Source: a candidate division WOR-1 bacterium RIFOXYB2_FULL_36_35 (GTDB taxonomy: Bacteria; Margulisbacteria; WOR-1; XYC2-FULL-46-14; XYC2-FULL-37-10). Taken from it: DNA of 64,000 nt. Positions 5,284-59,775 of the stretch are shown here, one piece after another (position 1 is the stretch's first letter; each line of letters begins with the position of its first letter). The translations under genes and the position numbers were made by a program. The stretch lies in assembly GCA_001771505.1 (NCBI GenBank), contig MEUA01000023.1:2346-66345 (forward strand), given 5' to 3'. The notes under the pieces were generated by a model that did no database searches, was not told the origin of the DNA, and worked only from the letters and a program-made list of their open reading frames with translations.

Positions 5284-5304
5284 GAACTGTTGTATAATAA
5301 TCGG
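5284..5304 (+). repeat. Solo terminal fragment of the CCCCGATT palindromic repeat family (ATAATCGGGGTTAATATTC)
   Basis: Matches the 3' tail of full copies (e.g. 6903..6923). Confidence 0.6.
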
Positions 5305-5306
5305 GG

Positions 5307-5579
5307 TTAATATTCAACAGAAAAACCATTAAAACGTCCACTAAATTCAAACCAATTGATAGAAAACTTGTCGATATTAGGTTCCATTGCTTTGTAAACA
5401 GCCTCAAGAAAGGACTCTACTTCTTTTTTTTCTCCTTCCGCAATTATTTCTACTCTTCCATCATACAGATTTTTAACATGTCCTGAGATTGAATATTTTG
5501 AAGAAATATTTTGAGCGGTAAAACGAAAACCGACACCATGAACTCTACCGGAGTAATATACCTCAGCACACTTTCTCAA
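5307..5579 (-). CDS. acyP: Acylphosphatase
   Basis: 90 aa; 'VHGVGFRF...GHVKNLYDGRVEI' acylphosphatase signature. Confidence 0.7.
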   Translation of the reverse strand: MRKCAEVYYSGRVHGVGFRFTAQNISSKYSISGHVKNLYDGRVEIIAEGEKKEVESFLEAVYKAMEPNIDKFSINWFEFSGRFNGFSVEY

Positions 5580-5746
5580 AAAAACACCTCAACCCGTACT
5601 ACAACCCATAAAAATAATCGTACAAGCCAGCACTATGCTCACCAAAAATATAATTAAAAATAAATGTTTTGGATTTTCCATAACTTATGGTTAATGATAC
5701 CATTTAAGAGAAATTTTGCAACATTTTTATATATCCCAGAAGAATT

Positions 5747-5840
5747 GAACCCCGACTAGGAAATCGGGGTTCATACCTGGGAAAATTTCCAACACTCTTC
5801 TAGAATTCTGTTCGTCTATAAATAATCGGGGTGAAATTTC
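5747..5840 (+). repeat. Palindromic repeat element copy A, long subtype: hairpin GAACCCCGAnTAGGAAATCGGGGTTCAT + spacer with CTAGAATTCTGTTCGTCTAT + tail AATAATCGGGGT
   Basis: Near-identical to 6842..6923 and 40434..40533, and reverse-complement of 59688..59775. Confidence 0.85.
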
Positions 5841-5866
5841 CGAAATAATCATCCGAAAATAAATTA

Positions 5867-6805
5867 ATGACTCAAACTCAAGCTGTAAAGTTTAGATTCA
5901 CAAAAGTACCCACGCCACAAACTGGAATAATAAGGTTTACAAGAAAACCTGCGGATAGATTATTTGTTCATATAAATCCATCTTATGATGAGCAAGTTGA
6001 ACTAACTAGTTTACTTACGACAACAACTTCACCAAAGAATCCTGACAATATTATTGTCCTACCTTCAACCGCAGTGCCGAGACAAGTCTTAGATTTGATG
6101 GGCAAAGCAAGCAAAATAAATGAAAAAAAATTTAATGTTTCTCAGAATTATCTTAAAGATTTTACTGCTTTTTGCAAATTCATAGGGTTTACAAGGTTTG
6201 TGGGAATTGTCCCTGACATAGAAACAAGCCCCATTGCAAAGCAATACCCCGATGTAGCATTTCCGGTAAATGGGTTAACTATGATGGGAAATGGACAATT
6301 GTATGACCCTTCCGCGATTTTTGGAGAGTTTTTTGAGAAGATGAAAGACTCATTAATAATTGTTTCAACCTGTGAGAATGAAGTAGTCTTTGGCGAAAAT
6401 GGAGGTTGGGAAATAAAAAGCACTCCGTGGCAGGAGACAAATGTCCAACAGCAGGAGCTAACTGACGGCGAATCACAAGAAAGTCTGGAACAAAAAACAA
6501 TGAAACAATCTGAAAAAATTGCAACTCTATATTTAACAGAAAGAATTATCCATTTAATGTCACATTTAAGAAATAGATCTATAGGAGACAATAAATCTCA
6601 TAATTTTCTTGAATTCTTTTCGTATGCTTATTTATACAATTTTTTAAACTGTTGTTGGTATATTTTTGAAGAGGATGCTTCCATAAAAACTATTATACAA
6701 AAAAGACAATTAAAAATACTTGAGTTAATAGATTTTAATTACAGTCAAATAACTGAAGATGAGAGAAAAGAGATAAAAATACTCAAAAGAGCAAATATAG
6801 ACTGA
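5867..6805 (+). CDS. hypothetical protein (312 aa), bracketed by direct copies of the repeat element
   Basis: ORF with ATG 27 nt after repeat tail; no recognisable domains. Confidence 0.45.
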   Translation: MTQTQAVKFRFTKVPTPQTGIIRFTRKPADRLFVHINPSYDEQVELTSLLTTTTSPKNPDNIIVLPSTAVPRQVLDLMGKASKINEKKFNVSQNYLKDFTAFCKFIGFTRFVGIVPDIETSPIAKQYPDVAFPVNGLTMMGNGQLYDPSAIFGEFFEKMKDSLIIVSTCENEVVFGENGGWEIKSTPWQETNVQQQELTDGESQESLEQKTMKQSEKIATLYLTERIIHLMSHLRNRSIGDNKSHNFLEFFSYAYLYNFLNCCWYIFEEDASIKTIIQKRQLKILELIDFNYSQITEDERKEIKILKRANID

Positions 6806-6841
6806 AAAAATATTCCTTATTTATTACAACATCATTACTTT

Positions 6842-6923
6842 TAACCCCGATCATTCATATCTGGGGAAATTTCCAACACTCTACTAGAATTCTGTTCGTC
6901 TATGAATAATCGGGGTTAATTTC
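6842..6923 (+). repeat. Palindromic repeat element copy B, long subtype with degenerate first hairpin
   Basis: Shares CTGGGGAAATTTCCAACACTCTACTAGAATTCTGTTCGTCTATGAATAATCGGGGTT with copy A. Confidence 0.85.
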
Positions 6924-6974
6924 TTTCAAAATATTTGAGCGTCAGTTTTTTTATAACAGGGAAGTGTTCCTCAT

Positions 6975-7010
6975 GGGTAATTTATTATTGTTTATAAAAT
7001 ATGTTATAAT
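6975..7010 (+). promoter_or_regulatory. Putative sigma70-type promoter with extended -10 TGTTATAAT (7002..7010) upstream of gmhA
   Basis: Perfect TGnTATAAT 24 nt before the ATG; GGAG Shine-Dalgarno at 7024..7027. Confidence 0.35.
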
Positions 7011-7033
7011 TGAAGCAAAATTTGGAGAAAAAA

Positions 7034-7603
7034 ATGCGAGATAAAATTAAATTAGAAATAGAAGAGTCAATTGAAGTTAAAAAGGCCACATTTGAAAAAA
7101 TTATCCCAAAAATAGAAGAAGCTGTAAAACTGATAATTACTGCCATAAAAACAGGAAATAAACTTTTGATCTGCGGTAATGGAGGATCTGCTTCTGATTC
7201 TCAACACTTTGCGGCGGAATTGATCAGCCGGTTTAAAAAAGAGAGGCGCTCAATCTCTGCGGTAGCTTTGACTACTGATACTTCAATTATTACAGCGATT
7301 GGGAATGATTATACTTTTGACAATATTTTTTCAAGGCAGGTTGAAGGCTTAGGGCAAAAGGGTGATATTTTAATCGGAATATCAACCTCAGGAAATTCTA
7401 AAAATATCCTAAAAGCGATTGAAACCGCGAAATTAAGAGAATTAAAAACTATCGCTTTGTTAGGTTGCGACGGAGGACTAATTGCAAAAAAGGCAGATCT
7501 TTCAATAATTGTACCAAGCAACAACACGCCAAGAGTCCAAGAAGTACATATAACAATAATTCATATAATTTGCGGATTAGTCGAAGAGGAGGTAGGTAAA
7601 TAG
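7034..7603 (+). CDS. gmhA: Phosphoheptose isomerase (SIS domain), D-sedoheptulose-7-phosphate isomerase
   Basis: SIS motifs 'CGNGGSASDSQHFAAE', 'GISTSGNS'; ATG at 7034 preferred over the TTG at 7010 in the track. Confidence 0.85.
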   Translation: MRDKIKLEIEESIEVKKATFEKIIPKIEEAVKLIITAIKTGNKLLICGNGGSASDSQHFAAELISRFKKERRSISAVALTTDTSIITAIGNDYTFDNIFSRQVEGLGQKGDILIGISTSGNSKNILKAIETAKLRELKTIALLGCDGGLIAKKADLSIIVPSNNTPRVQEVHITIIHIICGLVEEEVGK

Positions 7604-7644
7604 ATTATCAGACTGATGTTCTGGCATCCTGATATTCTTTAACT

Positions 7645-9111
7645 ATGTTAGAAAGCCATTTAAAAAAAGAACTGCAAAAAATAAAAGGTAAAAAAGTTTT
7701 GGTCTTTGGTGATCTTATGCTTGATGAACATATATGGAGTCACGTTAATCGTATAAGCCCTGAAGCCCCTGTTGTTGTTGCTGACGTTTCCAAGATTACG
7801 CATGTCCCCGGAGGATCTGGAAATGTGGCTAACAATATTTTAACTCTTGGGGGAACCCCTATCCTTGTAGGATTAATCGGCAATGACAGTTCAGGAATTA
7901 AACTTGTACAAGCTTTAAAAATTTTGGGGATAAATGAAAAATATCTTATAAAAAATTCTGAACGCCCGACAATATTAAAATCTAGGCTTATAGCCTCAGG
8001 CCAACAAATTGTTAGAGTTGACAGAGAATTAAAAGAGATTATTTCACATAAACTTTCTAAGAAAATATTGTTGAGAGCAGTTAACCAGATTCGTAAAGTT
8101 GATGCTGTAATAATTTCCGATTACGGCAAAGGGTTAACATCTAAAGAAAACTGTCAAGTAATTATAAGGGCAGCTAACAAGTATAAAAAACCTGTCCTTG
8201 TAGATCCAAAAGGGACAGATTATAAAAAATATGAAGGGGCTACAATAATAACGCCCAATCTAAAAGAAGCTGAAGCTGCTACCAACATCAAAATAAATAG
8301 TGAAAAAGGTTTATTGAAAGCAGGAGAAAAACTGCTGAAAACAATAAACTCCCCTTTTGTTTTAATTACAAGAAGTGAAAAAGGGATGTCTCTTTTTAGA
8401 AAAAAAGAAGAGCCCATTCACATCCCGGGAATTCCTCGCCAGGTTTTTGATATTACAGGAGCTGGCGATACCGTAATTGCAATGTTAGCGTTATCTTTTT
8501 CGTCAGGTATGAAAATTTCCGATGCCGTGCATTTGGCAAATGACGCGGGATCAATTAAAGTTACAAAAATCGCGACTCAACCGGTTTATTATAAAGAGCT
8601 GGAAGATTCTCTAGTAGAAAAAGATCCGGCTTCAAAAAAGATAAAAAACAGAGAAGAGTTAAAAGAGATAGTAAAACAATTAAGATCTTCAGACATGAAA
8701 ATCGTATTTACGAACGGTTGTTTTGATATTTTACATCTTGGACATGTAAGATATTTAAAAGAGGCAAAAAATTTAGGTGATGTTTTAATTGTCGGGTTAA
8801 ACAGTGATGCTTCCGTAAAAAAACTAAAAGGGTTTCCCCGTCCTTACCTACCTGAGCACGAAAGGGCTGAGATTTTAGCTTCTTTAGAAAGTGTTGATTA
8901 TGTGGTGGTGTTTAATGAAAACAGGCCCGATAATTTAATAAAAATAGTAAAACCAGCTTTTCATGTTAAGGGTGGAGATTATAAAATATCCGAACTGCCT
9001 GAAAGAGATATTGTCAAAAAGTTTGGCGGGGAAATTATAGTAATTCCGCCTGTTGAAGGCAAGTCGACGACAAATATCGTAGAAAAAATAAAATCAACAG
9101 CTGGCAATTAA
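7645..9111 (+). CDS. hldE: Bifunctional D-beta-D-heptose 7-phosphate kinase / D-beta-D-heptose 1-phosphate adenylyltransferase
   Basis: N-terminal ribokinase-like domain ('DITGAGDT'), C-terminal cytidylyltransferase ('FTNGCFDILHLGHVRYL'); 488 aa. Confidence 0.9.
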   Translation: MLESHLKKELQKIKGKKVLVFGDLMLDEHIWSHVNRISPEAPVVVADVSKITHVPGGSGNVANNILTLGGTPILVGLIGNDSSGIKLVQALKILGINEKYLIKNSERPTILKSRLIASGQQIVRVDRELKEIISHKLSKKILLRAVNQIRKVDAVIISDYGKGLTSKENCQVIIRAANKYKKPVLVDPKGTDYKKYEGATIITPNLKEAEAATNIKINSEKGLLKAGEKLLKTINSPFVLITRSEKGMSLFRKKEEPIHIPGIPRQVFDITGAGDTVIAMLALSFSSGMKISDAVHLANDAGSIKVTKIATQPVYYKELEDSLVEKDPASKKIKNREELKEIVKQLRSSDMKIVFTNGCFDILHLGHVRYLKEAKNLGDVLIVGLNSDASVKKLKGFPRPYLPEHERAEILASLESVDYVVVFNENRPDNLIKIVKPAFHVKGGDYKISELPERDIVKKFGGEIIVIPPVEGKSTTNIVEKIKSTAGN

Positions 9112-9173
9112 CCCCGATTATGATAATCAGGGTTGATTTCTGTTTTCACCGTAAACAATCGGGGTTAATATTG
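9109..9173 (+). repeat. Palindromic repeat element copy C, double-hairpin subtype
   Basis: TAACCCCGATTATGATAATCAGGGTT ... AAACAATCGGGGTTAATATTG. Confidence 0.8.
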
Positions 9174-9199
9174 ATTCTTGGGAATAAGGAGAATTTAAA

Positions 9200-9793
9200 G
9201 TGAAAAAGATAATATTTGTTTTTATTGCTATATTAATTGCCTCCACCCAGGTTTTTGCGTGGAGAATATCAAAAGACTTAGAAAAAGAGATAGAAACTAA
9301 AAAGATTGCATTAAAAGAAGATGATGCAAATTCACAATTTGATCTTGCAATTACTTATGCTTATTCAAATAAAATAGAAGAAGGTTGGGAATTGCTCAAA
9401 AAAGCAGATAAGATAGATCCGTCATTTAAAGAGGCAGGATGGAAAACATATAAAGAAAAAACTCAAAACGACCCTGAAAACTGGAAAATACATTTTCGCT
9501 ATGCTTTTGCCCTTTATTTTAATGGTAAAAAAGAAGAAGCTATAAAAGAGTTTAAAAAAGTAATAGAACTTGATCCTAAAAATATATGGGCTTACAGTTA
9601 TATCGGTTTAATCTATGGCGAAATAAATAAAATAGACGAGGCGATACAAAACATAAAAAAAGCGATAGCTATAGATTATGATGTTGCGGCAGTACATCTT
9701 TTGCTTTCTCAGGCATATTATAAAAAAGGCGATTCTTGGGGAGGATTTAAGGAAGCGTCTGAAGCTGTAAGACTTAGAGCTTTAGGATATTAA
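9200..9793 (+). CDS. Secreted TPR-repeat protein
   Basis: GTG start after AAGGAG; signal peptide; several TPR-like repeats. Confidence 0.55.
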   Translation: MKKIIFVFIAILIASTQVFAWRISKDLEKEIETKKIALKEDDANSQFDLAITYAYSNKIEEGWELLKKADKIDPSFKEAGWKTYKEKTQNDPENWKIHFRYAFALYFNGKKEEAIKEFKKVIELDPKNIWAYSYIGLIYGEINKIDEAIQNIKKAIAIDYDVAAVHLLLSQAYYKKGDSWGGFKEASEAVRLRALGY

Positions 9794-9839
9794 AATAAAG
9801 ATAAGAACCAATCATGGGTTTTATCTTTTTGAAAAAGAT

Positions 9840-10856
9840 ATGGAACTATTAAAAAAAATATCATTTTTTATATTTGTATTGTTTATTCTGCTTTTATTTG
9901 TATGGGCATTATATGTTCCTAAAAAGGATGTCACAGATATGATTCAATCAACCTTAGATGAACAGAAAGGTAAGTTAGATCTTTTTTATAAAGGGGTTGC
10001 TTTTCAGGAGACGATAAATGGCATTAAATATTGGGAAATAAAAGCTAAGACAAGCAGCATTAACAAAACAACGGGAATCGCTTCTCTTGAAGAAACAGAA
10101 GGGACATTTTTCAGGGATAAAAAGCCGACTTTAATGTTTGTTGCGCCATATGCTGTATGGAAAATGAATGAAAGAGAAATAACTCTCATAAACCCGATTG
10201 GTTATGACTCAAAATCAAAAAACAGCTCAGTGATCGCCTCTTTGCAAAACAAGAATGGTAATTATTTCCAGTTTCCTTCTTCCAATGACAAAAAGGACAA
10301 AGGCTTTATATTTAAGGCCCAAAAACTTGTTTGGAGTATAAAAAACAAAGCTATAGTTTGTGATAAAGGCTTATGGATTAAAAAAGGAGAAATAAGCGGT
10401 CACGCGCAAAGATTAAAAGGTGACACCTCTATGGAGAAAATTGAAATATCAGGTAACCCTGTAATAAATATTGTAAACTCTAACATTTCAACAATAGAAG
10501 CGGATAAATTTTTAATGGACAGAAATAAAGATCTAATAATAGCTTCTGGAAAAGTAACCTTTAAAATAGATGAAATTAAAGGTTCAACGGGAAAAGCTAT
10601 TTACAATCAAAAAGAGAAGAATCTTTATTTAATTGATAATGTTATAATTAAATATAAGGATTTTAAAGCGACATCAAACCAGGCTAAGTACAATATATTC
10701 GACCAAAAGATTGTTTTAGTTGATAATAGCAAATTAACAAGAGAATTAAGTGAAGTGACTGGCGATTCCATAGTAATTGACATAAAATCTAAAAAAGTCG
10801 CAATTTTGGGTAAAAGTAGAGCGATTATTCCGGATAAGGGGTTAGATAAAAAGTGA
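9840..10856 (+). CDS. LptC/LptA-like (OstA-fold) periplasmic LPS transport protein, membrane-anchored
   Basis: N-terminal TM helix followed by two OstA-like beta-jellyroll-type segments; next to heptose biosynthesis genes. Confidence 0.45.
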   Translation: MELLKKISFFIFVLFILLLFVWALYVPKKDVTDMIQSTLDEQKGKLDLFYKGVAFQETINGIKYWEIKAKTSSINKTTGIASLEETEGTFFRDKKPTLMFVAPYAVWKMNEREITLINPIGYDSKSKNSSVIASLQNKNGNYFQFPSSNDKKDKGFIFKAQKLVWSIKNKAIVCDKGLWIKKGEISGHAQRLKGDTSMEKIEISGNPVINIVNSNISTIEADKFLMDRNKDLIIASGKVTFKIDEIKGSTGKAIYNQKEKNLYLIDNVIIKYKDFKATSNQAKYNIFDQKIVLVDNSKLTRELSEVTGDSIVIDIKSKKVAILGKSRAIIPDKGLDKK

Positions 10857-11863
10857 TAACAACAAAGTTTTTGGAAGATTTAAAAACACTGCCAAAACTT
10901 GAAGCTATTGTTGAAGGAAATGGTTCTATCTTTGACTTAATAATAATAGGCGGAGGGCCTGCTGGATTAACTGCTGCCTTATATGCCGGGCGTGCAAGGC
11001 TAAAGACTCTTCTTATAGAAAGAGCCTTGATCGGAGGGATGGCTTCCACGACTTATAAAATCGAAAATTATCCGGGATTTTCTGAAGGAATAAGTGGAAT
11101 GGATATAAGCCATAAATTTGAAGAAGGTGTTAGAAACTTGGATATTCCGATCTATTACGGAGAAGTTACAAAAATAACAAAAGATAGATACATAGAAATA
11201 GACGGAGAGAAAATACAGGCAAAGGCGATAATAATAGCATCAGGAACAGAGACAAAGAAACTTGGCATTTTAGGCGAGGATAAATTCAGAGGTAGAGGCG
11301 TTTCTTATTGCGCAACTTGTGATGGGTCATTCTATAAAGAAAAAAACATCGCCGTTGTAGGCGGAGGAAATTCCGCTATTGAAGAGGCTATATATCTTAC
11401 AAGGTTTGCCAAAAAGGTAACAATAATTCATAGAAGAGATAAATTAAGAGCAGATAAAATAATAATTGAAAAAGCTTTAAATAACCCAAAAATTTTTGTT
11501 TTATGGAATTCTACTATAGAAGAAATTAACGGGGATAAACGTGTTGAAAGCTTAACACTGTTAAACACCCAAACAAATACCCGAACAACTCTTCCGATGG
11601 AAGGGTTATTTATATATATAGGACGAATTCCCAATACTAGTTTTGTTGATAATATATTGGATATGTCTAAAAATAGATTTATAAAAGTTGATAATAACAT
11701 GAGAACTTCAAGCTCCGGAATTTTTGCTTGCGGTGACGTAATCGAAAAATCTTTATATCAAATAGTCACGGCAGCAGGAGATGGAGCTTTAGCCGCCGAG
11801 TCTGCCAGAAAATTCATTGAAGATGAATATCTAAATGACAGGGAAAAGACTACTACTATATAA
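10853..11863 (+). CDS. trxB: Thioredoxin-disulfide reductase
   Basis: FAD motif 'IIGGGPAGLTAA', redox 'CATCDG', NAD(P) site 'VVGGGNSAIEEA'. Confidence 0.85.
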   Translation: MITTKFLEDLKTLPKLEAIVEGNGSIFDLIIIGGGPAGLTAALYAGRARLKTLLIERALIGGMASTTYKIENYPGFSEGISGMDISHKFEEGVRNLDIPIYYGEVTKITKDRYIEIDGEKIQAKAIIIASGTETKKLGILGEDKFRGRGVSYCATCDGSFYKEKNIAVVGGGNSAIEEAIYLTRFAKKVTIIHRRDKLRADKIIIEKALNNPKIFVLWNSTIEEINGDKRVESLTLLNTQTNTRTTLPMEGLFIYIGRIPNTSFVDNILDMSKNRFIKVDNNMRTSSSGIFACGDVIEKSLYQIVTAAGDGALAAESARKFIEDEYLNDREKTTTI

Positions 11864-11868
11864 GAATC

Positions 11869-13523: not shown

Positions 13524-13535
13524 ACACTAAAATTA

Positions 13536-13544
13536 TGTTATAAT
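13536..13544 (+). promoter_or_regulatory. Extended -10 TGTTATAAT upstream of iscS (implies a very short leader)
   Basis: Same ATGTTATAAT decamer as upstream of gmhA; lies 12 nt before the iscS ATG. Confidence 0.3.
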
Positions 13545-13556
13545 TTAAGTATAAAA

Positions 13557-14717: not shown

Positions 14718-14746
14718 CCAATATCCAATTATAACCGGAGGTTAAT

Positions 14747-15163: not shown

Positions 15164-15351
15164 AAATTTTTGGAAGTTCAAATTCTATTTCTTGTCCAAT
15201 GATGCTAGAGGCATCTAAAATTTCTATGCCAATAAGCTTCTTATTTTTGTCAAAATCAGCCAAAACCCCAGGCATAATAATAATAATCTGAAATTCCAAG
15301 AAAAGTGGGACGATGAATGACCATAGGGAAATCAACGCTCAAAGCGAATTT

Positions 15352-15392
15352 AACCCCGATTATTCACCCCGATTAGGATAATCAGGGTGAAT
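15352..15392 (+). repeat. Palindromic repeat element copy D (double-hairpin, short)
   Basis: AACCCCGATTATTCACCCCGATTAGGATAATCAGGGTGAATGAGG; overlaps the annotated TTG/ATG region of the next ORF. Confidence 0.8.
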
Positions 15393-15404
15393 GAGGAGAA
15401 ACCA

Positions 15405-19366: not shown

Positions 19367-19375
19367 CTTTGTATT

Positions 19376-25066: not shown

Positions 25067-25753
25067 ATGGCAATTTTAGGTATAAGCAGCGCGACAAAAA
25101 TCCTATCTGTGGGAATTTGTGAAAACAGCAACACTCTTGCGGAACTTATCGTTTCAGGCAAAGAGTCTTTTACAGAAGATTTAATTGTTTATATAGAAAA
25201 GCTCATAGAACAGGCAAAAGTAAAAATAACAGGGATTGCTGTTGCTTCCGGACCTGGATCTTATAATGGATTACGCGGTGGAATGGCAACAGCTAAAACA
25301 TTAGCGCAGATTTTTGCCGTACCAATTGCCCAAGTTTCGACACTTGAAGCAATTGCTTTTAATTTAATAAATGTTAATGGGACTATACTCTCTCTTTCTG
25401 ATGCCAGACGGGATGAATATAACATTGCTTTATTTGCTTCTTATCAAAATAATTTAAAACGCATTACAAATGATTTATTAATGAAATTGGAAGATATAAA
25501 AAAGTTGTTGTCTAAAATTAAGGGTGAAATCTATGTATGCAGTTGTAATGAAGAAATTCAAAGCCTTTTTATCGCGAAGAATATAAGATTTGCCATTCAA
25601 AATTTTTCTATACCCAGAGGCTCAAATGTTGCAATTATCGGCGAAAAGTTAATCAAAGAAGGAAAAGACTCAAACTTAATGAAACTTACTCCAAATTATT
25701 CAGTAGAACCAAACATAAGAGAATTTAAAAAAGGGGTTAATGATCGGGGTTAA
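25067..25753 (+). CDS. tsaB: tRNA t6A biosynthesis protein TsaB (inactive Kae1/YeaZ homolog)
   Basis: YeaZ-like N-terminal 'GISSATKILSVGI', 228 aa; follows tsaE. Confidence 0.75.
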   Translation: MAILGISSATKILSVGICENSNTLAELIVSGKESFTEDLIVYIEKLIEQAKVKITGIAVASGPGSYNGLRGGMATAKTLAQIFAVPIAQVSTLEAIAFNLINVNGTILSLSDARRDEYNIALFASYQNNLKRITNDLLMKLEDIKKLLSKIKGEIYVCSCNEEIQSLFIAKNIRFAIQNFSIPRGSNVAIIGEKLIKEGKDSNLMKLTPNYSVEPNIREFKKGVNDRG

Positions 25754-25760
25754 CTAACTA
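25738..25760 (+). repeat. Solo fragment of the repeat family (AATGATCGGGGTTAACTAAC)
   Basis: Between convergent tsaB and the 25750..26385 gene. Confidence 0.5.
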
Positions 25761-27584: not shown

Positions 27585-27707
27585 TTTTTGTGCCAGCCTG
27601 ATGTTTCATTTTACAACAATTCCATCAAAAGGCTGTTGCATGACGAAAATTGATTAAAAAACGACAAAAGATCGTCAGTTCCAATATTGGGGAATTTTTA
27701 ACCCCGC

Positions 27708-27806
27708 TTATTCATACCCCGAGTAATGTTTGACAATTTGTTGGTTATTGATTCTGACGTGAACCCCGATTATCCTAATCGGGGTGAATAATCGGGGTTA
27801 AATAAG
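27708..27806 (+). repeat. Palindromic repeat element copy F, TTGACA-spacer subtype
   Basis: Contains 60-nt block TGTTTGACAATTTGTTGGTTATTGATTCTGACGTGAACCCCGATTATCCTAATCGGGGT, identical except one base to 54832..54891. Confidence 0.85.
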
Positions 27807-35600: not shown

Positions 35601-35668
35601 ACTAACCCGATTATCATAATCGAGGTTAGTTTCTGGTTTTACCTTGAATAATCAGGGTTAACTTTATG
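35601..35668 (+). repeat. Palindromic repeat element copy G (double-hairpin, degenerate)
   Basis: ACTAACCCGATTATCATAATCGAGGTTAG ... GAATAATCAGGGTTAAC. Confidence 0.7.
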
Positions 35669-40394: not shown

Positions 40395-40433
40395 CTCTTT
40401 TCTCCTTTTAATTTAAATGGTTTAACCCCTTTC

Positions 40434-40533
40434 AACCCCGATTATTCACCCCGATTAGGGAATCGGGGTTCATGCCTAAGGATTTTCTGAGCAGCCTACT
40501 AGAATTCTGTTCGTCCATGAATAATCGGGGTCA
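40434..40533 (+). repeat. Palindromic repeat element copy H, long subtype
   Basis: CAACCCCGATTATTCACCCCGATTAGGGAATCGGGGTTCAT ... CTAGAATTCTGTTCGTCCATGAATAATCGGGGTC. Confidence 0.85.
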
Positions 40534-40592
40534 ACTGACGAAAAAATTCTATAAAAGCGTTATCCGCATAAAACGCTTTTCCCATACTTACT

Positions 40593-45307: not shown

Positions 45308-45315
45308 CCCCTATA

Positions 45316-45334
45316 GGATAATCGGGGTAAAAAC
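45316..45334 (+). repeat. Solo tail fragment of the CCCCGATT repeat family (GGATAATCGGGGTAAAAAC)
   Basis: 8 nt after the IR element; 34 nt before the start of 45368 ORF. Confidence 0.5.
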
Positions 45335-48572: not shown

Positions 48573-48593
48573 TTAAGGGGTATTATATCCTTT

Positions 48594-50224: not shown

Positions 50225-50230
50225 AATGTT

Positions 50231-52198: not shown

Positions 52199-52335
52199 AA
52201 GATCAACACCCTGCCTCCTTTCAAACTTTTTTTCTGATTTTTTACATCTGAAGGGTCTGTGTAAATTTTTTAAAGTTTTATAATAATATCATAAAAAAAG
52301 TGAAATTTTTATATATTATGTTGCGATAGTGCATA

Positions 52336-52378
52336 AACCCCGATTATTCGCCCCGAGTAGGAAGGATAATCGGGGTAA
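52336..52378 (+). repeat. Palindromic repeat element copy J (double-hairpin, short)
   Basis: AAACCCCGATTATTCGCCCCGAGTAGGAAGGATAATCGGGGTAAAC. Confidence 0.8.
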
Positions 52379-52426
52379 ACTCTGATGACAAATCGGAGTC
52401 AAATAAAAATAATAAAGGAGTTTTTT

Positions 52427-53827
52427 ATGTCAACAAATACTATAGATTATAAACGAGTAACACCAATGCAAGCGTATAAATGGGCAGCTTCTGGAAAACT
52501 TAAGACAGGGCTCATTGGGCCAAATGACAAAATTAGGACTTATATACCTCCGTATGATCCTGCAATGCTTTTGTTTGCAACTCTTTGTAATAAGCTTGGT
52601 GAAGCAATAATAAAAAGAAGCCCTTTTTTAAGTTGCGGATATGATGAAATGCCAACGGATTTTTATAGTAGGAAACCTTTAAAAAAGGCAGATGATATCG
52701 TTTCTAAAAACATAGAGTTACAAACATCAGAAGGCCAGCCGTTTAATCTTACAAAATTAACCAAAGGATCAAAGCCTAAATCGGATGATTGGAAAAATGC
52801 GAGTATAATATGGGGACCAGGGCTAGGAATTAGATGGGCTACCGGACTTATGGGTACAAGCATAGGAAAAACCCCTGTACTGCAACGGCTGCTAGATAAA
52901 AGCGCTACTGTGTACACAATCGATCAGCCATGGATCGATTCAAATCAAAATTATCCCTTAAGCAACATTAATGAATCGGAAGTTTTGGCAAGGAGATTTT
53001 ATCCCTCTTTTGCAGATTGGGCATTGGCAAACAATTTAGATGAAAATCCCGTTATATTTATGGATCACAGCATGGGAGTTACAAACCTGGAAATACATCT
53101 TTCGATTTATTCTGATATAATAAAAAAAGATCCCAGATTAAAGAAATTGTTTGCGACAAGGCTCTCTTTTGGAACTCCATTTCCAATGGTTGACGGACTT
53201 ATGATGCTTCTCTCTCTTGGCGAGCCATTGTTAGAAAAGATAGGATTAGATTATTTTGACTATCCCGGATTAGGCCCTTTAGTAAAAAAACTTGGCATAC
53301 AAAAACCACTTACAAATAACCCTTTAAATCTTGGCGCTTTTTCTTGTGAAACTCTGCCCTCAGAGTTAATAGATGAATTTTTTGAGCATGCTGTAGCCCC
53401 CTGGTCCAGAAACCAGCTAAGATTTTTCAGGTTAGGTGCGTATCGTGGCCATTTTAGTTATTTAAATAAGCCTCAACCTTTTTGGCCTGGGATGCTGAAT
53501 GTAAATTTTATGGGGACGCGCGATCCTTTAGGTTCATTTTTTGGAGCTTTGGCATACCAAATGCCTCAGCCGCAAAGCATAAGAGATAAAACTTCTTTTA
53601 TAAACGTTGATAGAAGTTTGCCTCCAAGTACGAACTATATATTAGATAACTTAGACGCTATAAACTATATTGTTATTGATCCTGCTACCCATCTTGAGCT
53701 TTTGTGCGCAGGCCCTTCTATTTTTGAAAATTTTATCTGGCCTACAACAGAAGCAATAATAGATTCTATAGTTAATGCTAAGTTGCTAGCAAATAATAAT
53801 GTAAAAAGGAATCAGTTTTATGAATAG
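52427..53827 (+). CDS. Hypothetical protein (possible alpha/beta-hydrolase-like 'DHSMG' elbow)
   Basis: Start moved to ATG 52427 after AAGGAG; no firm domain assignment. Confidence 0.4.
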   Translation: MSTNTIDYKRVTPMQAYKWAASGKLKTGLIGPNDKIRTYIPPYDPAMLLFATLCNKLGEAIIKRSPFLSCGYDEMPTDFYSRKPLKKADDIVSKNIELQTSEGQPFNLTKLTKGSKPKSDDWKNASIIWGPGLGIRWATGLMGTSIGKTPVLQRLLDKSATVYTIDQPWIDSNQNYPLSNINESEVLARRFYPSFADWALANNLDENPVIFMDHSMGVTNLEIHLSIYSDIIKKDPRLKKLFATRLSFGTPFPMVDGLMMLLSLGEPLLEKIGLDYFDYPGLGPLVKKLGIQKPLTNNPLNLGAFSCETLPSELIDEFFEHAVAPWSRNQLRFFRLGAYRGHFSYLNKPQPFWPGMLNVNFMGTRDPLGSFFGALAYQMPQPQSIRDKTSFINVDRSLPPSTNYILDNLDAINYIVIDPATHLELLCAGPSIFENFIWPTTEAIIDSIVNAKLLANNNVKRNQFYE

Positions 53828-54716
53828 GATATCAGTCATTGAAGACTCAGGTTTTTTTGGCAAGATATTCAGATCAAAAGATGTTGAGAATAATTCTTCT
53901 TTAGCCTTTGATTCAGAGCTTGATAAAATCAAAAAATCAGGAAAGACCCAGGCAGAAAAAGTTGAAGATTACTGTAAACTGGCGCTTAAAGAATCTGCTG
54001 CAAAAAGAAGACAAAACGCTATAAAAGCCTTTAGCTTCGCGCTGAAAGCCGTCCCGGGTCCTCTTTCTGACTCTGAAAAAATATTTGCTGGAGTTTTAAA
54101 AGATCAGAAAATAAAAAATCATGAGGAACTGATCAGTAATTGTCTGCATTTAATAGCAGGAGAAATGGCAAAGACCAATCTTTCTGTTCATGATATGACA
54201 TTTATTTCTGGAGGCTCACTTGATAAATTTGAATTCCAGTTTATCCTTGTACAGGAACTTTCAAACGCGTTCCGTTTTAATGAGAGTCTTAAAATTGCCA
54301 TAAAAATGGATGATGGCGCGTTACCGCAGAAAATCAAAGCTTTTACCTATTTAGCTTCAAAGGCAGAGGGCCAATCTGCGCATATATTATTTAACAAAGC
54401 TTTGAAGCTGGCAAGGTCATGCAATGTCAATTATCTGAAAGCTGATTTTGAAGAAGAGATAATCATACAAATGGCTGAATCAGATTTGTTTAATGACGCG
54501 TTAAGAGCAGCATTAAAAATTGAAATTATCAGCAACAAGGTCTCTTCTTTATGCGGGATAGCCGTTGTTATGAATGAAAAGGGTTATGCTGAAAGCGGGG
54601 AAAAAATACTTAACATGGCAAAAAAAATCGTAGAAATTGTAAGCCGATCAGATGCTAACCTTAACCGGTTAATTGAAAGTGCGGAAAATCAAATAAAAAA
54701 ACAATCTTCTTCTTAA
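53820..54716 (+). CDS. Hypothetical alpha-helical repeat protein
   Basis: ORF overlapping the upstream gene by 8 nt; helical repeat character. Confidence 0.4.
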   Translation: MNRISVIEDSGFFGKIFRSKDVENNSSLAFDSELDKIKKSGKTQAEKVEDYCKLALKESAAKRRQNAIKAFSFALKAVPGPLSDSEKIFAGVLKDQKIKNHEELISNCLHLIAGEMAKTNLSVHDMTFISGGSLDKFEFQFILVQELSNAFRFNESLKIAIKMDDGALPQKIKAFTYLASKAEGQSAHILFNKALKLARSCNVNYLKADFEEEIIIQMAESDLFNDALRAALKIEIISNKVSSLCGIAVVMNEKGYAESGEKILNMAKKIVEIVSRSDANLNRLIESAENQIKKQSSS

Positions 54717-54740
54717 CCCCGATTATCCTAATCGGGATTA
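54714..54740 (+). repeat. Palindromic repeat, single-hairpin copy K1 (TAACCCCGATTATCCTAATCGGGATTAAAATT)
   Basis: Perfect 9-bp arms CCCCGATTA/TAATCGGG(A). Confidence 0.75.
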
Positions 54741-54813
54741 AAATTAAATTGCTATATCTTTTATATTGGTTGAATTCTTTGAAAAAAGTATACGATAATA
54801 TATTGACCCCGAT

Positions 54814-54893
54814 TATTCATACATCGAGTAAATGTTTGACGATTTGTTGGTTATTGATTCTGACGTGAACCCCGATTATCCTAATCGGGGTTG
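54814..54893 (+). repeat. Palindromic repeat element copy K2, TTGAC-spacer subtype
   Basis: 60/60 nt identical except one base to copy F (27732..27791). Confidence 0.85.
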
Positions 54894-54901
54894 ATATAGG
54901 A

Positions 54902-56422: not shown

Positions 56423-56435
56423 TCCATACATATTT

Positions 56436-57035: not shown

Positions 57036-57042
57036 CCATTTG

Positions 57043-57068
57043 AACCCCGATTATGATAATCGGGGTGA
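57043..57068 (+). repeat. Palindromic repeat, single-hairpin copy L (GAACCCCGATTATGATAATCGGGGTGAAGTC)
   Basis: 8 nt upstream of the start of 56436..57035. Confidence 0.75.
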
Positions 57069-57122
57069 AGTCTATCTAATTTAAGATCATGTATTTTAAC
57101 AGATTATTTCATATGATAATAA

Positions 57123-58370
57123 TCAAAAGAAGGTTAAATAGAGCATGATACATGATATGATAGTAAATCCGCTAATTGTAAGCCATGCAATAAAATTATT
57201 GATGGGTCCATTGATATATTGCTGCATTAATTTTTTATCATTTATTAATTTAAGAACTACAATAAAAATTATAGGCAATAATAAAGTATTTAAAGCCTGC
57301 GATACTACAATAACTAGTATCATTGGAAATTTTGGGAACAACACAAATATAGAGCTTAAAATAAGACAAAACATCATTATGGAATAGAAAATTGGAGCTT
57401 CAAAAAAAGAGGCCTTAACTTTTCTCTCCGTGCCCAAAACTTCTGTTAAAGTATAGGCTGTTCCCATGGAGATAACGCTCGCACCCAATAATGAAGCATT
57501 TAGCAATCCCCACGCAAAAAGATGCTTTGATAAAGGTCCCAACAATGGTTTTATTGCAAGTGCGGCATCAAGGGCGGTTCTTATATGAATGCCTTTTGTA
57601 AAAAGAGTTGCCGCGGCAGAAATCATAATAAAATAAGCAACAAAATCCGTCCAAAATGAACCCATAAAGACATCAAGTTTTGCTGACTGTAAATATTTTT
57701 TGGGTGTTCCTTTATCAACGAAATAAGATTGGATGAAAAATTGTCCCCATACTGTTAAAGTTGTCCCGATTAGAGCTGTCATTGTGAATATATAATCTCT
57801 ATTTAATTGAACTGTTGGGATTAGACTTCCCTGTATCATCGCGTGCAAATCAGGTTTTGCTATGAAACCATTTATTATGTAGCAGAAAAACAACACAGCA
57901 GATGTCATAAAAATGTTTTGTACAAAATTAAAACTTCCTTTTATAATCACATATAAAATCAAAAAAACAAATAGTGGAACAAAAATAAGCCGTGGTACAT
58001 GATAAATATCAGCAACGGAAGCAATCCCAGCAACATTAGCTAAAATATTAGCAAAGTTGACCAAAAAAACCAAAGAAATAAGAGAGACCGCAAAAGGCAA
58101 ACCAAAACGTTCTCGAATAAGATCCCCTAACCCCTTTCCTGTAACAATTCCCAACCTTGCCCCCATCTCTTGTGTTATATAAAGCATAAATGTAATAACA
58201 ATTAAAAGCCACAACATCTGATAACCATAATGCGCGCCCGCAACAGAATAAGTTGCAATGCCGCCGGCATCGTTATCTGCCGTACCTGTAATAATTCCGG
58301 GACCGACAACAGAAAAAAACATTAACCATTTTAATTTCCAAAATTTTATTTTTTTAAAAAAGTTATGCAT
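57123..58370 (-). CDS. NRAMP (SLC11)-related cation transporter with non-canonical metal-site residues
   Basis: Clear alignment to MntH TM1-TM2 ('GPG...AGAHYGYQMLW...GIVTGKGLGDLIRE'); canonical DPGN replaced by DAGG, and the TM6 'MPH' motif replaced by 'TVW'. Confidence 0.8.
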   Translation of the reverse strand: MHNFFKKIKFWKLKWLMFFSVVGPGIITGTADNDAGGIATYSVAGAHYGYQMLWLLIVITFMLYITQEMGARLGIVTGKGLGDLIRERFGLPFAVSLISLVFLVNFANILANVAGIASVADIYHVPRLIFVPLFVFLILYVIIKGSFNFVQNIFMTSAVLFFCYIINGFIAKPDLHAMIQGSLIPTVQLNRDYIFTMTALIGTTLTVWGQFFIQSYFVDKGTPKKYLQSAKLDVFMGSFWTDFVAYFIMISAAATLFTKGIHIRTALDAALAIKPLLGPLSKHLFAWGLLNASLLGASVISMGTAYTLTEVLGTERKVKASFFEAPIFYSIMMFCLILSSIFVLFPKFPMILVIVVSQALNTLLLPIIFIVVLKLINDKKLMQQYINGPINNFIAWLTISGFTIISCIMLYLTFF

Positions 58371-58373
58371 AAA

Positions 58374-59645
58374 TTATCCAAGCATTTGCCTTTTTCTTCT
58401 TGATACAGGAGGTAAAATAAAATCAACAACATCATCAACTGTTACAATTCCTAACATTTTATTGCTATCGTCAACAACCGGAACAGCTAATAAATTATAT
58501 TTAGAAATTACGTGTGCCACTTCTCGTGCATCCGTTTCCGCTTTTGTTGTAATTGGGGTTTTAATCATGATTGTTGAAATTATTACATCTGAAGCATTTA
58601 TAATTAAACTGCGAAGGCTTAAAACACCAATTAACTTTTCATCATTGTCTACAACATATAAATAATAAATAGTTTCAGCTGAAGGACCTTTATCTCTTAA
58701 GTAATTTATAGTCTCTTCCACAGTATAAGTTTGAGGCAAAGCGATAAATTCAGTAGTCATAAGCCCTCCAGCTGTTTCATCCCCATGCCTTAAAAGTTTC
58801 CTTATTTCCAAGGATTTTTTAGGTTTTATAAGCCTTAAGAACTCTTCACATTTTTCAGAAGAGACATCACCTAGTATATCCGCAGCTTCATCTATAGGCA
58901 TTTTTTCAAGTATTCTTAAAGCCTTCTTGGTATCTATTGTTTGCACTATCATAGCTCCAATGTGAGGTTCAAGCTCATGCAAAGATTCGGAAGCTGTTTG
59001 TTCATCTAAAGAATCAAATATAGCGGTCTTTTCGGCAGAATGCACCTGGCTTATTATTTGCGCTATATCCGCAGGATGAAGTTCTGCTGTTCTGTGATGA
59101 GGAATTGTAATTAATCCTTTAGAAGTTCCGGTTTTTAATGATTCAACATGATCCCAACCTATCAAATTTTCCGAAAGTTTTTTGCCGAAAATCGTAAATA
59201 CCCAGGATATAAATTTTTCCAGTCCAATCCTTCTAAAAAAACCTGAAAACCCTATATCAGCGGCAATAAGCCTGATATCTTGTTGAACCAAAGCAAGCTT
59301 AAGGTCATTCACCCTAATTACTCGAGCGCCATCTATATCTACAATTTGTTTATCTACCACATTTTCAAACAATTTAACTTCCTCGGGCCTATGTGAAGTA
59401 AAAGTTAAGCGATCTTTTACATATTTAGTTGCTACAAATTTTTTGCCTATAAGTTCAACTTCAGATAATAACAAAACAACTTCTTTGTTATCAATTTTCT
59501 TTTTAATTAAAAGGCTTATAACTCTGGGGAATTTATCTCCCAAAACAACAAAAACATCTTTTACCCCTCCGACAGGTTCCTGTAACCGATCGACAACAGG
59601 AATCCCTATTAATTCGGATAAATACATCTCTGTAAACAAAACCAT
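58374..59645 (-). CDS. Soluble PRC-barrel + MgtE-N + tandem CBS domain protein (MgtE cytoplasmic module without the membrane domain)
   Basis: MgtE-N-like helical region followed by a CBS pair ('LLAVPVVDDSNKMLGIVTVDDVVDFI'); no TM helices; 4 nt from the NRAMP-related gene. Confidence 0.7.
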   Translation of the reverse strand: MVLFTEMYLSELIGIPVVDRLQEPVGGVKDVFVVLGDKFPRVISLLIKKKIDNKEVVLLLSEVELIGKKFVATKYVKDRLTFTSHRPEEVKLFENVVDKQIVDIDGARVIRVNDLKLALVQQDIRLIAADIGFSGFFRRIGLEKFISWVFTIFGKKLSENLIGWDHVESLKTGTSKGLITIPHHRTAELHPADIAQIISQVHSAEKTAIFDSLDEQTASESLHELEPHIGAMIVQTIDTKKALRILEKMPIDEAADILGDVSSEKCEEFLRLIKPKKSLEIRKLLRHGDETAGGLMTTEFIALPQTYTVEETINYLRDKGPSAETIYYLYVVDNDEKLIGVLSLRSLIINASDVIISTIMIKTPITTKAETDAREVAHVISKYNLLAVPVVDDSNKMLGIVTVDDVVDFILPPVSRRKRQMLG

Positions 59646-59687
59646 GATAAAATTAATTATAACATATTTTAAAACATTAAAATTTAA

Positions 59688-59775
59688 CCCCGATTATTCA
59701 TAGACGAACAGAATTTTAGCAGAGTGTTGGAAATTTTCCCAGGTATGAACCCCGATTTTCTAATCGGGGTTCATA
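59688..59775 (-). repeat. Palindromic repeat element copy M, long subtype, reverse orientation
   Basis: Reverse complement matches copies A/B/H including CTAGAATTCTGTTCGTCTAT. Confidence 0.85.

Follow-up and report, generated by a model that had tools for sequence, protein, structure and literature searches.

A dense, probably MITE-like family of small hairpin repeats in a candidate division WOR-1 bacterium

Small dispersed repeats in other bacteria

Prokaryotic MITEs, as defined in PMC3184786 and PMC10969869 and exemplified by the Neisseria Correia, enterobacterial ERIC and pneumococcal RUP elements, are short, non-coding sequences with terminal inverted repeats and flanking direct repeats (target duplications) that occur in many dispersed intergenic copies, have the capacity to form hairpins and at times modify the ends of genes. 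The repeats described here, from an uncultured member of candidate division WOR-1 (Ca. Saganbacteria), share these properties, but they are much smaller (their minimal unit has 21 nt and their composites 60–105 nt), their apparent duplication is one of 4 bp at T-N-N-A, mostly TTAA, their members nest in one another's terminal repeats, and they reach a density of about one locus per 4–5 kb in a genome that is ~93% coding. We know of no parent insertion sequence for this family.

The REP, BIME and REPIN elements of E. coli and Pseudomonas (PMC3116915) resemble the WOR-1 family in hairpin size, strictly extragenic location and high copy number, in their mosaic clusters of units that alternate in orientation and are joined by conserved linkers, and in the proposed encoding of the enzyme elsewhere. 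Their palindromes, however, are GC-rich and imperfect, whereas the WOR-1 family has perfect ones in which a C4/G4 core is set in AT-rich sequence, and the latter family also differs in having 4-nt direct flanks, in lacking a 5' GTAG-type tetranucleotide and in the failure to find a RAYT in the DNA examined. The SMAG repeats of Stenotrophomonas maltophilia, which are REP-like, bear a GTAG signature and are associated with RAYTs, are likewise small palindromic repeats at comparably extreme density, but are unrelated to the WOR-1 family in sequence and host phylum. In PMC3184786 they are the ~1,600-copy case (Rocco et al. 2010), small repeats being cited there at up to ~1,600 copies per genome; the density of the WOR-1 repeats, which the initial annotation had placed far above that of typical REP systems, is indeed high but within this published range.

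Architecture, abundance and flanks of the repeats

Within the window, by which we mean the whole 64,000-nt stretch of DNA analysed, CCCCGATT occurs 28 times compared with 1.70 ± 1.11 in shuffled sequences, the full hairpin pattern 5 times compared with 0 expected, and the AACCCCGATTAT half-site, allowing up to 2 mismatches, 42 times compared with 1–14 in shuffles. About 37 of these 42 matches fall at repeat loci, which group into the 16 loci of Table 1. One occurrence of CCCCGATT, at 38307, was rejected as a family member, being a chance match within the AlaRS gene. The dense repeat family reported in the initial annotation is real: all 15 loci named there contain the motif, although the degenerate half-site at 670–683 had been missed and some start coordinates were off by 10–15 nt (27708, 54814 and 5284 become 27698, 54803 and 5293). 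A hairpin had been described at each locus, but this does not hold throughout: 5297 and 25733–25753 consist of solitary or tandem half-sites, 45318 of a half-site adjoining another element, and 6841–6919 pairs solely via its long-range terminal repeats.

Table 1. Repeat loci in the window
Position	Strand	Element	Flanks	Context and structure
670..683	+	degenerate solitary half-site TTAACCCCGATATT		in 11-nt gap of convergent gene pair
5293..5310	-	solitary half-site ATAATCGGGGTTAA		25 nt past radical-SAM gene stop codon
5746..5835	+	type A composite	direct TGAA...TGAA	hairpin, conserved A core CTAGAATTCTGTTCGTC, right terminal repeat; 31 nt upstream of ORF 5867
6841..6919	+	type A short form, without nested hairpin	TTAA/TTAA	19-bp terminal inverted repeats, TTAACCCCGATCATTCATA...TATGAATAATCGGGGTTAA; N-gap here in NCBI assembly of same strain
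9108..9168	+	type C composite	TTAA/TTAA	hairpin, ~20-nt core, half-site; left TTAA supplies TAA stop codon of hldE
15350..15391	+	half-site + hairpin (→ → ←)	TTAA/TGAA	ends 12 nt before ATG 15405
25733..25753	-	truncated tandem half-sites GGGGTTAATGATCGGGGTTAA		between convergent genes; terminal TTAA forms stop codons of both tsaB-like gene and ORF 25750-26385
27698..27801	+	type B composite, full form	TTAA/TTAA	left repeat, 47-nt B core, nested hairpin, right repeat; overlaps final codons of PorV-like gene 27775-28710
35601..35661	+	type C composite, degenerate		inserted in yceG 3' end
40432..40534	-	type A composite, full form + extra half-site	direct TCAA...TCAA (TTGA, gene strand)	
45312..45330	-	half-site GGATAATCGGGGTA		adjoins right end of Element-2 MITE; partner arm degenerate or displaced
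52334..52379	+	half-site + hairpin	direct TAAA...TAAA	divergent promoter gap
54713..54741	.	simple hairpin	TTAA/TTAA	left TTAA holds TAA stop of ORF 53820-54716
54803..54894	+	type B composite	direct TTGA...TTGA	ends 7 nt before ORF 54902
57041..57069	.	simple 21-nt hairpin CCCCGATTATGATAATCGGGG	direct TGAA...TGAA	DNA folding energy -10 kcal/mol, z = -5.7
59684..59773	+	type A composite, opposite orientation to 5746	TTAA/TTCA	left repeat, A core, terminal hairpin

The elements are non-coding, form hairpins and range from ~21 to 105 bp, with ends that consist of the inverted repeat CCCCGATTAT(TCA) / (TGA)ATAATCGGGG. The smallest member is a 20–21-nt hairpin, CCCCGATTA-N2-3-TAATCGGGG, and types A, B and C (~60–105 nt) have a conserved non-coding core between the common ends, conserved internal cores of 47–50 nt accompanying the motif. 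The three architectures distinguished earlier are better described as one modular system made up of the 21-nt hairpin core, the half-site plus hairpin, and composites A, B and C. The folding energies of the hairpins lie between -7.5 and -22 kcal/mol and their z-scores between -2.8 and -6.4. Two type B copies (27725–27790 and the copy at 54803) are 95% identical, and compensatory covariation, looked for in the stems across copies, was not found; such high similarity between copies, together with stems that do not covary, is more in keeping with recent spread than with a conserved structured RNA. No Rfam family matches the motif, and no paper in the literature searched covers it.

All units in the window are intergenic or lie on a stop codon. 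Intergenic DNA makes up 7.3% of the window, and elements now account for ~19% of it; of the 18 gaps that measure 84 nt or more, 12 contain repeats.

The elements sit between 4-nt direct repeats, of which TTAA is the commonest and TGAA, TTCA, TAAA and TTGA also occur. The flank pairs comprise 33 of TTAA/TTAA, 21 that are direct and non-palindromic and 2 that are inverted only, compared with 4.06 ± 1.81 non-palindromic direct pairs by permutation (0/5000 permutations reached 21). Perfect direct flanks border 9 of the 12 complete elements in the window, 5 of these 9 being non-palindromic. Because TTAA is itself palindromic, the commonest flank is compatible with either a duplication or an extension of the inverted repeat. 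Non-palindromic direct 4-nt flanks in such excess are the signature of target-site duplication, although some of the TGAA/TGAA and TTCA/TTCA flanks could have come from 13-nt tandem duplication or palindrome-driven deletion instead of insertion.

Often the hairpin lies nested in a longer member's terminal repeat, at TGAA or TTCA, and from this arise the 13-nt-spaced arrays → → ← and → ← ←. Types A and B are found with or without a nested hairpin at one TGAA/TTCA position, and the hairpin can lie there in either orientation. Element 2, an unrelated MITE, occurs on identical backbones in empty, loop A-filled and loop T-filled forms. The hairpin inside it is flanked by ACAA/TTAA, imperfect as a 4-nt duplication, and the empty site is ACAAGA, so a simple 4-bp duplication does not fit there.

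Distribution beyond the window

The family is genome-wide. It was found on at least 36 further non-redundant metagenome loci (372 kb), which hold 111 clusters and 208 units, at ~0.2 clusters per kb (~one per 5 kb) after removal of the copy that triggered each match. Housekeeping genes are present on these 36 loci, and their tetranucleotide correlation with the window is 0.96–0.99, compared with 0.76–0.96 for GC-matched unrelated genomes.

Two relatives (AlaRS identity 71% and 65%) have the dnaB-504aa-tmk-alaS-ruvX-yceG block in common with the window, and the 43 kb of syntenic DNA from them contains no CCCCGATT units. The junction between the 504-aa gene and tmk spans 198 nt in the window, where it holds the 40432..40534 element, versus 8–11 nt in the relatives, and the YceG C-terminal extension VNPDYSR, which is encoded by the 35601..35661 element, is absent from both. 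The motif is therefore neither confined to the window nor conserved at orthologous positions in relatives, the two outcomes that the initial annotation had set against a mobile family. Near-identical copies of the window region all came from one clonal population, and no insertion polymorphism was seen directly among them.

Origin of the repeats and their effect on genes

We consider it probable, at roughly 80%, that the repeats form a family of non-autonomous MITE-like elements specific to this lineage, REP-sized yet with target-site duplications. A transposase encoded elsewhere in the genome, putatively of the DDE type, would act in trans, making a 4-bp staggered cut at T-N-N-A targets into which the element would then be inserted. 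TTAA holds the TAA stop and abounds in AT-rich spacers, so that insertions could build up harmlessly between genes and at their ends. Mobilisation in trans we infer rather than observe, as searches of the window and of ~737 kb of related DNA turned up neither a RAYT nor a transposase whose ends match, and a counter-point to a DDE enzyme is that two ends merely 2–3 nt apart are an unusual substrate for such a transposase.

It is unlikely that the repeats are instead of the REP or REPIN type, moved by a single-copy RAYT (an HUH/Y1 transposase like those of IS200/IS605) that acts on hairpins in single-stranded DNA, as occurs in Pseudomonas and E. coli. In favour of this type, the hairpin unit has the size of a REP (21–29 nt), is extragenic and very abundant, its clusters recall BIMEs or REPINs, nested hairpins lie in either orientation at one site, a clean duplication is missing from the insertion in Element 2, and a RAYT, being single-copy, could easily lie outside the sampled DNA. 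The 4-nt direct flanks, however, are strongly non-random, whereas HUH elements (IS200/IS605) insert without duplication; the hairpins lack a conserved GTAG-like tetranucleotide on their 5' side, the flanks being T-N-N-A; and neither a search for HUH and YxxxNP motifs nor phmmer, with E. coli RayT against the six-frame translation of the ~737 kb, detected a RAYT-like ORF or homologue. The earlier statement that the window lacks a transposase or RAYT is supported. The accompanying description of non-autonomous MITE/REP-like units stands as regards lineage-specific, non-autonomous mobile repeats, but its REP/RAYT lead (tnpA-REP, IS200/IS605) is disfavoured because the direct flanks fit a staggered-cut MITE and the related DNA yielded no RAYT homologue.

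Selected cis-elements, whether 5'-UTR hairpins affecting translation or stability, terminators, or operators for a palindrome-binding regulator, are a very improbable explanation. Eight copies end 5–50 nt upstream of start codons, the distances given in the initial annotation being correct within a few nt, the hairpins are stable, and the G-rich arm could conceivably mimic or sequester a ribosome-binding site. There are also copies, however, at 3' ends, within other mobile elements and where convergent genes meet; types A and B, which are asymmetric, point either way relative to transcription; the matching gene junctions of the two relatives lack the elements; and neither stem covariation nor an Rfam match accompanies them. 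A U-tract is absent from the elements, as is any consistent signal of a promoter or terminator; in the 5200–9300 region there are 2 terminator-like sites versus 2.7 expected and 18 promoter-like sites versus 14 expected. The 5'-UTR function suggested earlier is thus not borne out, as composites occur in both orientations relative to genes and in co-directional, convergent and divergent gaps alike, and a compact genome together with the targeting of TTAA and stop codons accounts for the proximity to start codons. That the 12-nt motif serves as a signal for DNA uptake, like the Neisseria DUS or Haemophilus USS, and was gained through biased transformation is scarcely credible: those motifs too are of 10–12 nt, over-represented, as the WOR-1 motif hugely is, and often arranged as inverted pairs, and the window has a dprA gene, itself nearly universal, but 0 of ~37 units lie inside coding sequence, last codons excepted, where uptake sequences are common, and the WOR-1 motif inserts as discrete blocks with flanking duplications, filled and empty forms and conserved 47–50-nt cores that have no uptake-signal logic.

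On the MITE-like reading, any effects on expression, for instance through RNA or DNA hairpins, new stops or short C-terminal tails, would be a by-product of insertion and not the reason for the elements' presence. We regard the family as new but the kind of selfish DNA to which it belongs as well known, and do not see in the repeats a new regulatory system.

Abundance, anatomy and placement of the repeats

The short palindromic repeats of the window are real and constitute a MITE-like family of Ca. Saganbacteria that has not been described before. The motif CCCCGATT occurs 28 times, compared with 1.70 ± 1.11 in dinucleotide-preserving shuffles, and the closed hairpin CCCCGATT-N0-12-AATCGGGG is present five times where none is expected. 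With up to two mismatches, AACCCCGATTAT gave 42 matches in the window (1-14 in shuffles), ~37 of which fall in repeat loci. All 15 loci of the initial annotation were recovered, and a degenerate half-site at 670-683 adds a 16th. No repeat was overlapped by an Rfam 15 covariance model at the gathering score or at E ≤ 1, tRNA-Met being the only hit to pass the gathering score, and in the searched literature the motif strings matched unrelated primers only.

The basic half-site is CCCCGATTA with TTCA on its inner side, its mirror image is TGAA-TAATCGGGG, and the forms assembled from them are set out in the table. When the composites are aligned (19 copies of type A, 12 of type B), terminal inverted repeats of 13-19 bp emerge, CCCCGATTATTCA(TA) and (TA)TGAATAATCGGGG, and the folds pair both ends. 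The elements measure 21-105 nt, lie between annotated ORFs and have no coding capacity. Their single-strand folding energies range from -7.5 to -22 kcal/mol, with z-scores between -2.8 and -6.4, and in the longer elements the two ends pair around an inner hairpin. Across 142 distinct hairpins the core positions are near-invariant, and the stems show no real compensatory pattern of covariation; the changes are essentially one-sided, which leaves a selected RNA structure unsupported. The loops occur as reverse-complement pairs at near-equal counts (GGA 25 and TCC 23, TGA 14 and TCA 8), indicating that both orientations of the hairpin are equally used.

Every one of the ~37 repeat units is intergenic or lies on a stop codon, in a window of which intergenic DNA makes up 7.3%. 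Gaps of 84 nt or longer number 18, and 12 of them contain an element. Summed from their coordinates, the elements cover ~0.9 kb, equal to 1.4% of the whole window and ~19% of the intergenic portion. The sole copy of CCCCGATT inside a gene, other than in last codons, lies at 38307 within alaS and is consistent with a chance occurrence. TTAA contains TAA, and several genes stop within the TTAA flanking an element, as is the case for hldE, ORF 53820-54716, and the tsaB-like gene and its convergent neighbor. From this pattern, the family would seem to use stop codons and AT-rich spacers simply as places where insertion is safe.

The initial annotation had considered the repeats as possible 5'-UTR hairpins and placed eight copies just upstream of start codons. 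The positions are correct, with the elements ending 5-50 nt before the start; such nearness is expected, since the element itself accounts for most of the gap length. Composites of types A and B point either with or against their flanking genes, and the gaps that they occupy may be co-directional, convergent or divergent. Between 5200 and 9300, neither promoter-like nor terminator-like sites exceed the level of shuffles. Features of an intrinsic terminator are also missing from the elements, which are followed by TTAA, TGAA or similar and not by T-runs, and copies are found in divergent gaps as well; between 5200 and 9300 only one element scores as terminator-like, on the antisense strand. The family can be explained without a regulatory role, although individual copies may have one.

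Forms and positions of the repeats and of neighboring features (L numbers denote individual loci from the database scans)
Feature	Position	Structure or remark
Simple hairpin form		CCCCGATTA-N2-3-TAATCGGGG, 20-21 nt
Half-site plus hairpin form		13-nt spacing; arrangement -> -> <- or -> <- <-
Type A composite		TTAA-CCCCGATTATTCATAGACGAACAGAATTCTAGCAGAGTGTTGGAAATTTTCCCAGGTATGAATAATCGGGG-TTAA
Type B composite		Ends as type A (13-19 bp); different core, 47 nt
Type C composite		Ends as type A (13-19 bp); core ~20 nt
Non-palindromic direct flank	5746	TGAA
Non-palindromic direct flank	40432	TCAA
Non-palindromic direct flank	52334	TAAA
Non-palindromic direct flank	54803	TTGA
Non-palindromic direct flank	57041	TGAA
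Element/gene-end overlap	35639-35661	yceG 3' end
Element/gene-end overlap	27775-27799	
Element/gene-end overlap	9108-9111	
Element/gene-end overlap	54713-54716	
Element/gene-end overlap	25750-25753	
Element 2, full copy	45181-45310	Duplication CTATA at 45176/45311
Element 2, internally deleted copy	59802-59851	50 nt; duplication TTTAT at 59797/59852
Palindrome inside Element 2	~45254-45276	CCTGCCTGCCAGCAGGCACGG
Element 2, metagenome loci	L136, L137, L143, L169, L182, L193, L198, L204, L208, L229, L241 and others	
N run in GCA_001771705.1	L252 11040-11064	Window 6906-6956
N run in GCA_001771705.1	L252 16954	Window 12888-12937
Octamer-periodic repeats	60773-60805, 60861-60893, 60935-60955	GTTTACAG / TGTACAGT
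Unrelated ~70-nt element	L016, L025, L028, L037, L039-L042, L048, L052, L054, L055, L058, L066-L068, L073-L075, L077, L084, L092-L094, L096, L097, L104, L106, L108, L110-L112, L116	
Tandem palindrome array	L238 2548-2650	23-nt unit AACCCCGATTATATAATCGGGGTT

Direct flanking repeats and filled and empty sites

We compared the 4 nt outside the outermost CCCC...GGGG on the two sides of 122 distinct elements, permuting the right flanks 5000 times. TTAA/TTAA flanks were found on 33 elements, identical non-palindromic 4-mers (TTCA, TGAA, TAAA, TTTA and others) on 21, and inverted-only flanks on two. The 21 non-palindromic direct pairs compare with 4.06 ± 1.81 by permutation, a value of 21 being reached in 0 of 5000 permutations, and the inverted-only count is at or below expectation. 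Among the 12 complete elements of the window, nine have perfect direct flanks, five of these non-palindromic, and solitary hairpins show a similar picture (13 with TTAA/TTAA, 12 with direct TGAA or TTCA and two inverted). Direct 4-nt flanks have the look of a 4-bp target-site duplication, unlike an extension of the inverted repeat.

Types A and B each exist in forms with and without the 21-nt hairpin, which always occupies the same insertion point, either the TGAA of the right terminal repeat or the TTCA of the left. The site 4-mer is repeated on either side of the nested hairpin, which may lie in either orientation. The same hairpin is found in a second MITE family, Element 2, which is unrelated to it and was absent from the initial annotation. 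Element 2 is ~125-150 nt long, with the terminal inverted repeats GGG(A/T)CTGTTGC...GCAACAG(T/A)CCC and AT-rich target duplications of 5 bp, and has at least 20 distinct copies in related metagenome loci. Its empty form reads ...GAAAACAAGATGG... and its filled form ...GAAAAC[AACCCCGATTAT-N-ATAATCGGGGTT]AAGATGG..., and among three copies whose backbones otherwise agree fully, one is empty, one carries the hairpin with loop A and one the hairpin with loop T, which shows that a single exact site has changed state recently. This hairpin is an exception to the direct flanks, as it sits between ACAA and TTAA and has no clean 4-bp duplication.

The second internal hairpin of the full Element 2 copy in the window carries an extra small palindrome that other copies lack, and which may represent yet another, third type of very small palindromic insertion. 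Elsewhere in the window, the start of the PorV-like gene 59872-60840(-) is surrounded by octamer-periodic repeats that contain the palindrome TGTACA; they form two blocks of 65 nt separated by 88 nt, with one further copy in inverted orientation, and may represent an array of operators or a further repeat family. The N-termini of the adjacent genes 45368-46897 and 46937-47875 are nearly the same (82% over 50 nt). Within the first gene ~640 nt are duplicated at 75-76% identity, and an EAD1 (effector-associated) domain lies at its C-terminus. A similar N-terminus recurs in metagenome locus L156, and the set resembles a small family of paralogues. At ~25.7-28 kb the GC skew flips from positive to negative and gene orientation from + to - at the same place, consistent with a region like a replication terminus or with strand-biased transcription.

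Distribution beyond the window and in relatives

A metagenome scan for the family returned at least 114 stretches, which reduce to 79 components once overlaps are removed, one of them overlapping the window. At least 36 other non-redundant loci (372 kb, each with at least two clusters) hold 111 clusters and 208 units, a cluster density of ~0.2 per kb with the triggering copy discounted, compared with 0.25 per kb in the window. The family-bearing loci contain housekeeping genes (ValRS, ATP synthase beta, ArgJ, RmlC), and their tetranucleotide composition correlates with that of the window at r = 0.96-0.99, compared with 0.76-0.96 for GC-matched unrelated genomes. In viral contigs we found two unrelated terminators and nothing else.

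In the genome-collection scan with AACCCCGATT-N2-8-AATCGGGGT, the matches listed include unrelated terminator hairpins and an unrelated element of Aminicenantes and Acidobacteriota MAGs. The latter is a conserved element of ~70 nt, TGATACGTTCG(A/C)CGGCGCC-AAACCCCGATTT(T/C)(A/T)AAATCGGGGT-AAAAAGCGCCGCTCAGTATTAACCC, present in many copies in MAGs of Aminicenantes, Acidobacteriota, Thermodesulfobacteriota, Syntrophaceae and one 'Eubacteriales' bin, and has the appearance of a structured RNA or of one terminus of a widely distributed mobile element. A tandem palindrome array at the end of a 2.7-kb contig (L238) was dropped as a family member, since the contig's GC of 0.43 and its His/Pro-rich ORFs point to a different organism; its likeness to the family is probably coincidence.

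The product of ORF 5867-6805 is 99% identical to a protein of WOR-1 bacterium RIFOXYD2_FULL_36_8, which NCBI taxonomy places in Candidatus Saganbacteria, inside the Cyanobacteriota/Melainabacteria group. Contig MEUK01000065.1 of its NCBI assembly, GCA_001771705.1, matches window 1-14205 at 98.0-100% identity with only three real substitutions, the identities below 100% reflecting mostly N runs and assembly gaps. The N run at window 6906-6956 coincides exactly with the right end of a type-A element, indicating that these repeats break short-read assemblies. Copies of the region in other metagenomes are 99.8-100% identical and represent one clonal population; over all copies compared the identity is 99.4-100%, so that strain comparison among them is uninformative on insertion polymorphism.

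More distant relatives show that the family is lineage-specific. The block dnaB-504aa-tmk-alaS-ruvX-yceG is common to the window, WOR-1 RIFOXYC2_FULL_37_10 (AlaRS 71% identical to that of the window) and the Ca. Saganbacteria MAG GCA_016223245.1 (65%), and the 43 kb of syntenic DNA of both relatives contains no CCCCGATT-family elements. At the 504aa-tmk junction the relatives have 11 and 8 nt compared with 198 nt in the window, 103 nt of which are a type-A element. The YceG of the window ends in VNPDYSR, read from an element (GTT AAC CCT GAT TAT TCA AGG TAA), a tail missing from both relatives. The initial annotation had reasoned that confinement to the window, or copies held at conserved orthologous positions, would speak against a mobile family; the clusters in the further metagenome loci, together with the empty junctions and family-free synteny of the two relatives, show neither.

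Relation to known systems and a possible mechanism

The window encodes no transposase by Pfam and NCBIfam, in agreement with the initial annotation. A search of the window and ~737 kb of related loci, which is part of the genome, gave no RAYT-like ORF by HUH and YxxxNP motifs and no match to E. coli RayT at E ≤ 10 (phmmer against six-frame translations). In the ~737 kb of related metagenome loci the multi-copy ORFs are housekeeping paralogues only, no internal DNA repeat of at least 500 bp was found apart from overlapping contig pieces, and inspection of contig ends yielded no partial transposases. The 312-aa orphan ORF 5867-6805, between two type-A elements, was rejected as a transposase; it has no Pfam or NCBIfam match, is single-copy, and its one homologue is the same gene in the RIFOXYD2_FULL_36_8 NCBI MAG. 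Such negatives carry little weight, since short-read assemblies usually break at multi-copy insertion sequences, which would then be missing from the interior of contigs.

In the IS200/IS605-type mechanism, insertion leaves no target duplication, and the hairpin is preceded on its 5' side by a conserved tetranucleotide, for example GTAG. The present repeats resemble REP, BIME and REPIN sequences (PMC3116915) in size, extragenic location, mosaic clusters, high copy number and inverted doublets that form a larger hairpin, but differ from REP/REPIN in their significant 4-nt direct flanks, which are T-N-N-A, and in having no GTAG 5' of the hairpin. They differ also from DNA uptake sequences (DUS/USS) in being excluded from coding DNA and arriving as blocks. 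Prokaryotic MITEs are short (below about 400-500 bp) and non-coding (PMC3184786), and the family shares four of their five defining features (PMC3184786, PMC10969869): short non-coding units, terminal inverted repeats, flanking direct repeats, and dispersed copies with filled and empty sites. The fifth, an autonomous IS with the same ends, was not found in the window and the ~737 kb, part of the genome. The initial annotation's view of the family as far denser than typical REP/BIME systems holds in that the density is high (a locus every 4-5 kb and a half-site every ~1.7 kb), but it is within the reported range for small repeats, with ~1,600 copies in one genome cited in PMC3184786 and 711 ERIC copies in Photorhabdus (PMC10969869). 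What is unusual is a REP-sized unit of 21 nt with target duplication, its self-nesting and its density in a compact genome.

From these features we infer that the elements are non-autonomous and would be moved in trans by a transposase encoded elsewhere, which would integrate them at T-N-N-A by a 4-bp staggered cut. Duplications of 4 bp at YTAR/TTAA-like sites are typical of DDE transposases, for example those of the IS5 and IS701 groups, and HUH/RAYT elements insert without duplication. On this ground a DDE-type enzyme would be favored, with a probability of roughly 0.45, an HUH-type enzyme being possible but rather improbable. The minimal hairpin, with two 9-nt ends, 2-3 nt between them and the 4-bp duplication outside, would be an odd DDE substrate, which counts against a settled choice of DDE. 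That the 20-21-nt hairpin CCCCGATTA-N2-3-TAATCGGGG is itself a complete transposition substrate, and hence the smallest transposable unit known, is quite unlikely. If the hairpin does transpose alone, it would be the smallest mobile DNA unit described in bacteria and would mark how small mobile DNA can be. The palindrome would then be bound by a dimer of the enzyme, or in the form of a folded hairpin, with both outer boundaries cut at once, and the enzyme would target T-N-N-A sites including those within the element's own relatives. Such an enzyme would blur the border between REP and MITE and may be an uncharacterized class in Saganbacteria.

Bacterial genomes are shaped by small dispersed repeats, which also cause breaks in metagenome assemblies; in practice, the motif can serve as a marker for binning contigs of this lineage. 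The streamlined genome of an uncultured Saganbacteria member, of a lineage sister to Cyanobacteria, tolerates one insertion per 4-5 kb, amounting to about one-fifth of its intergenic DNA. The family is a clean example of the targeting of TTAA and stop codons as a safe-harbor strategy, in which some protein C-termini are rewritten.
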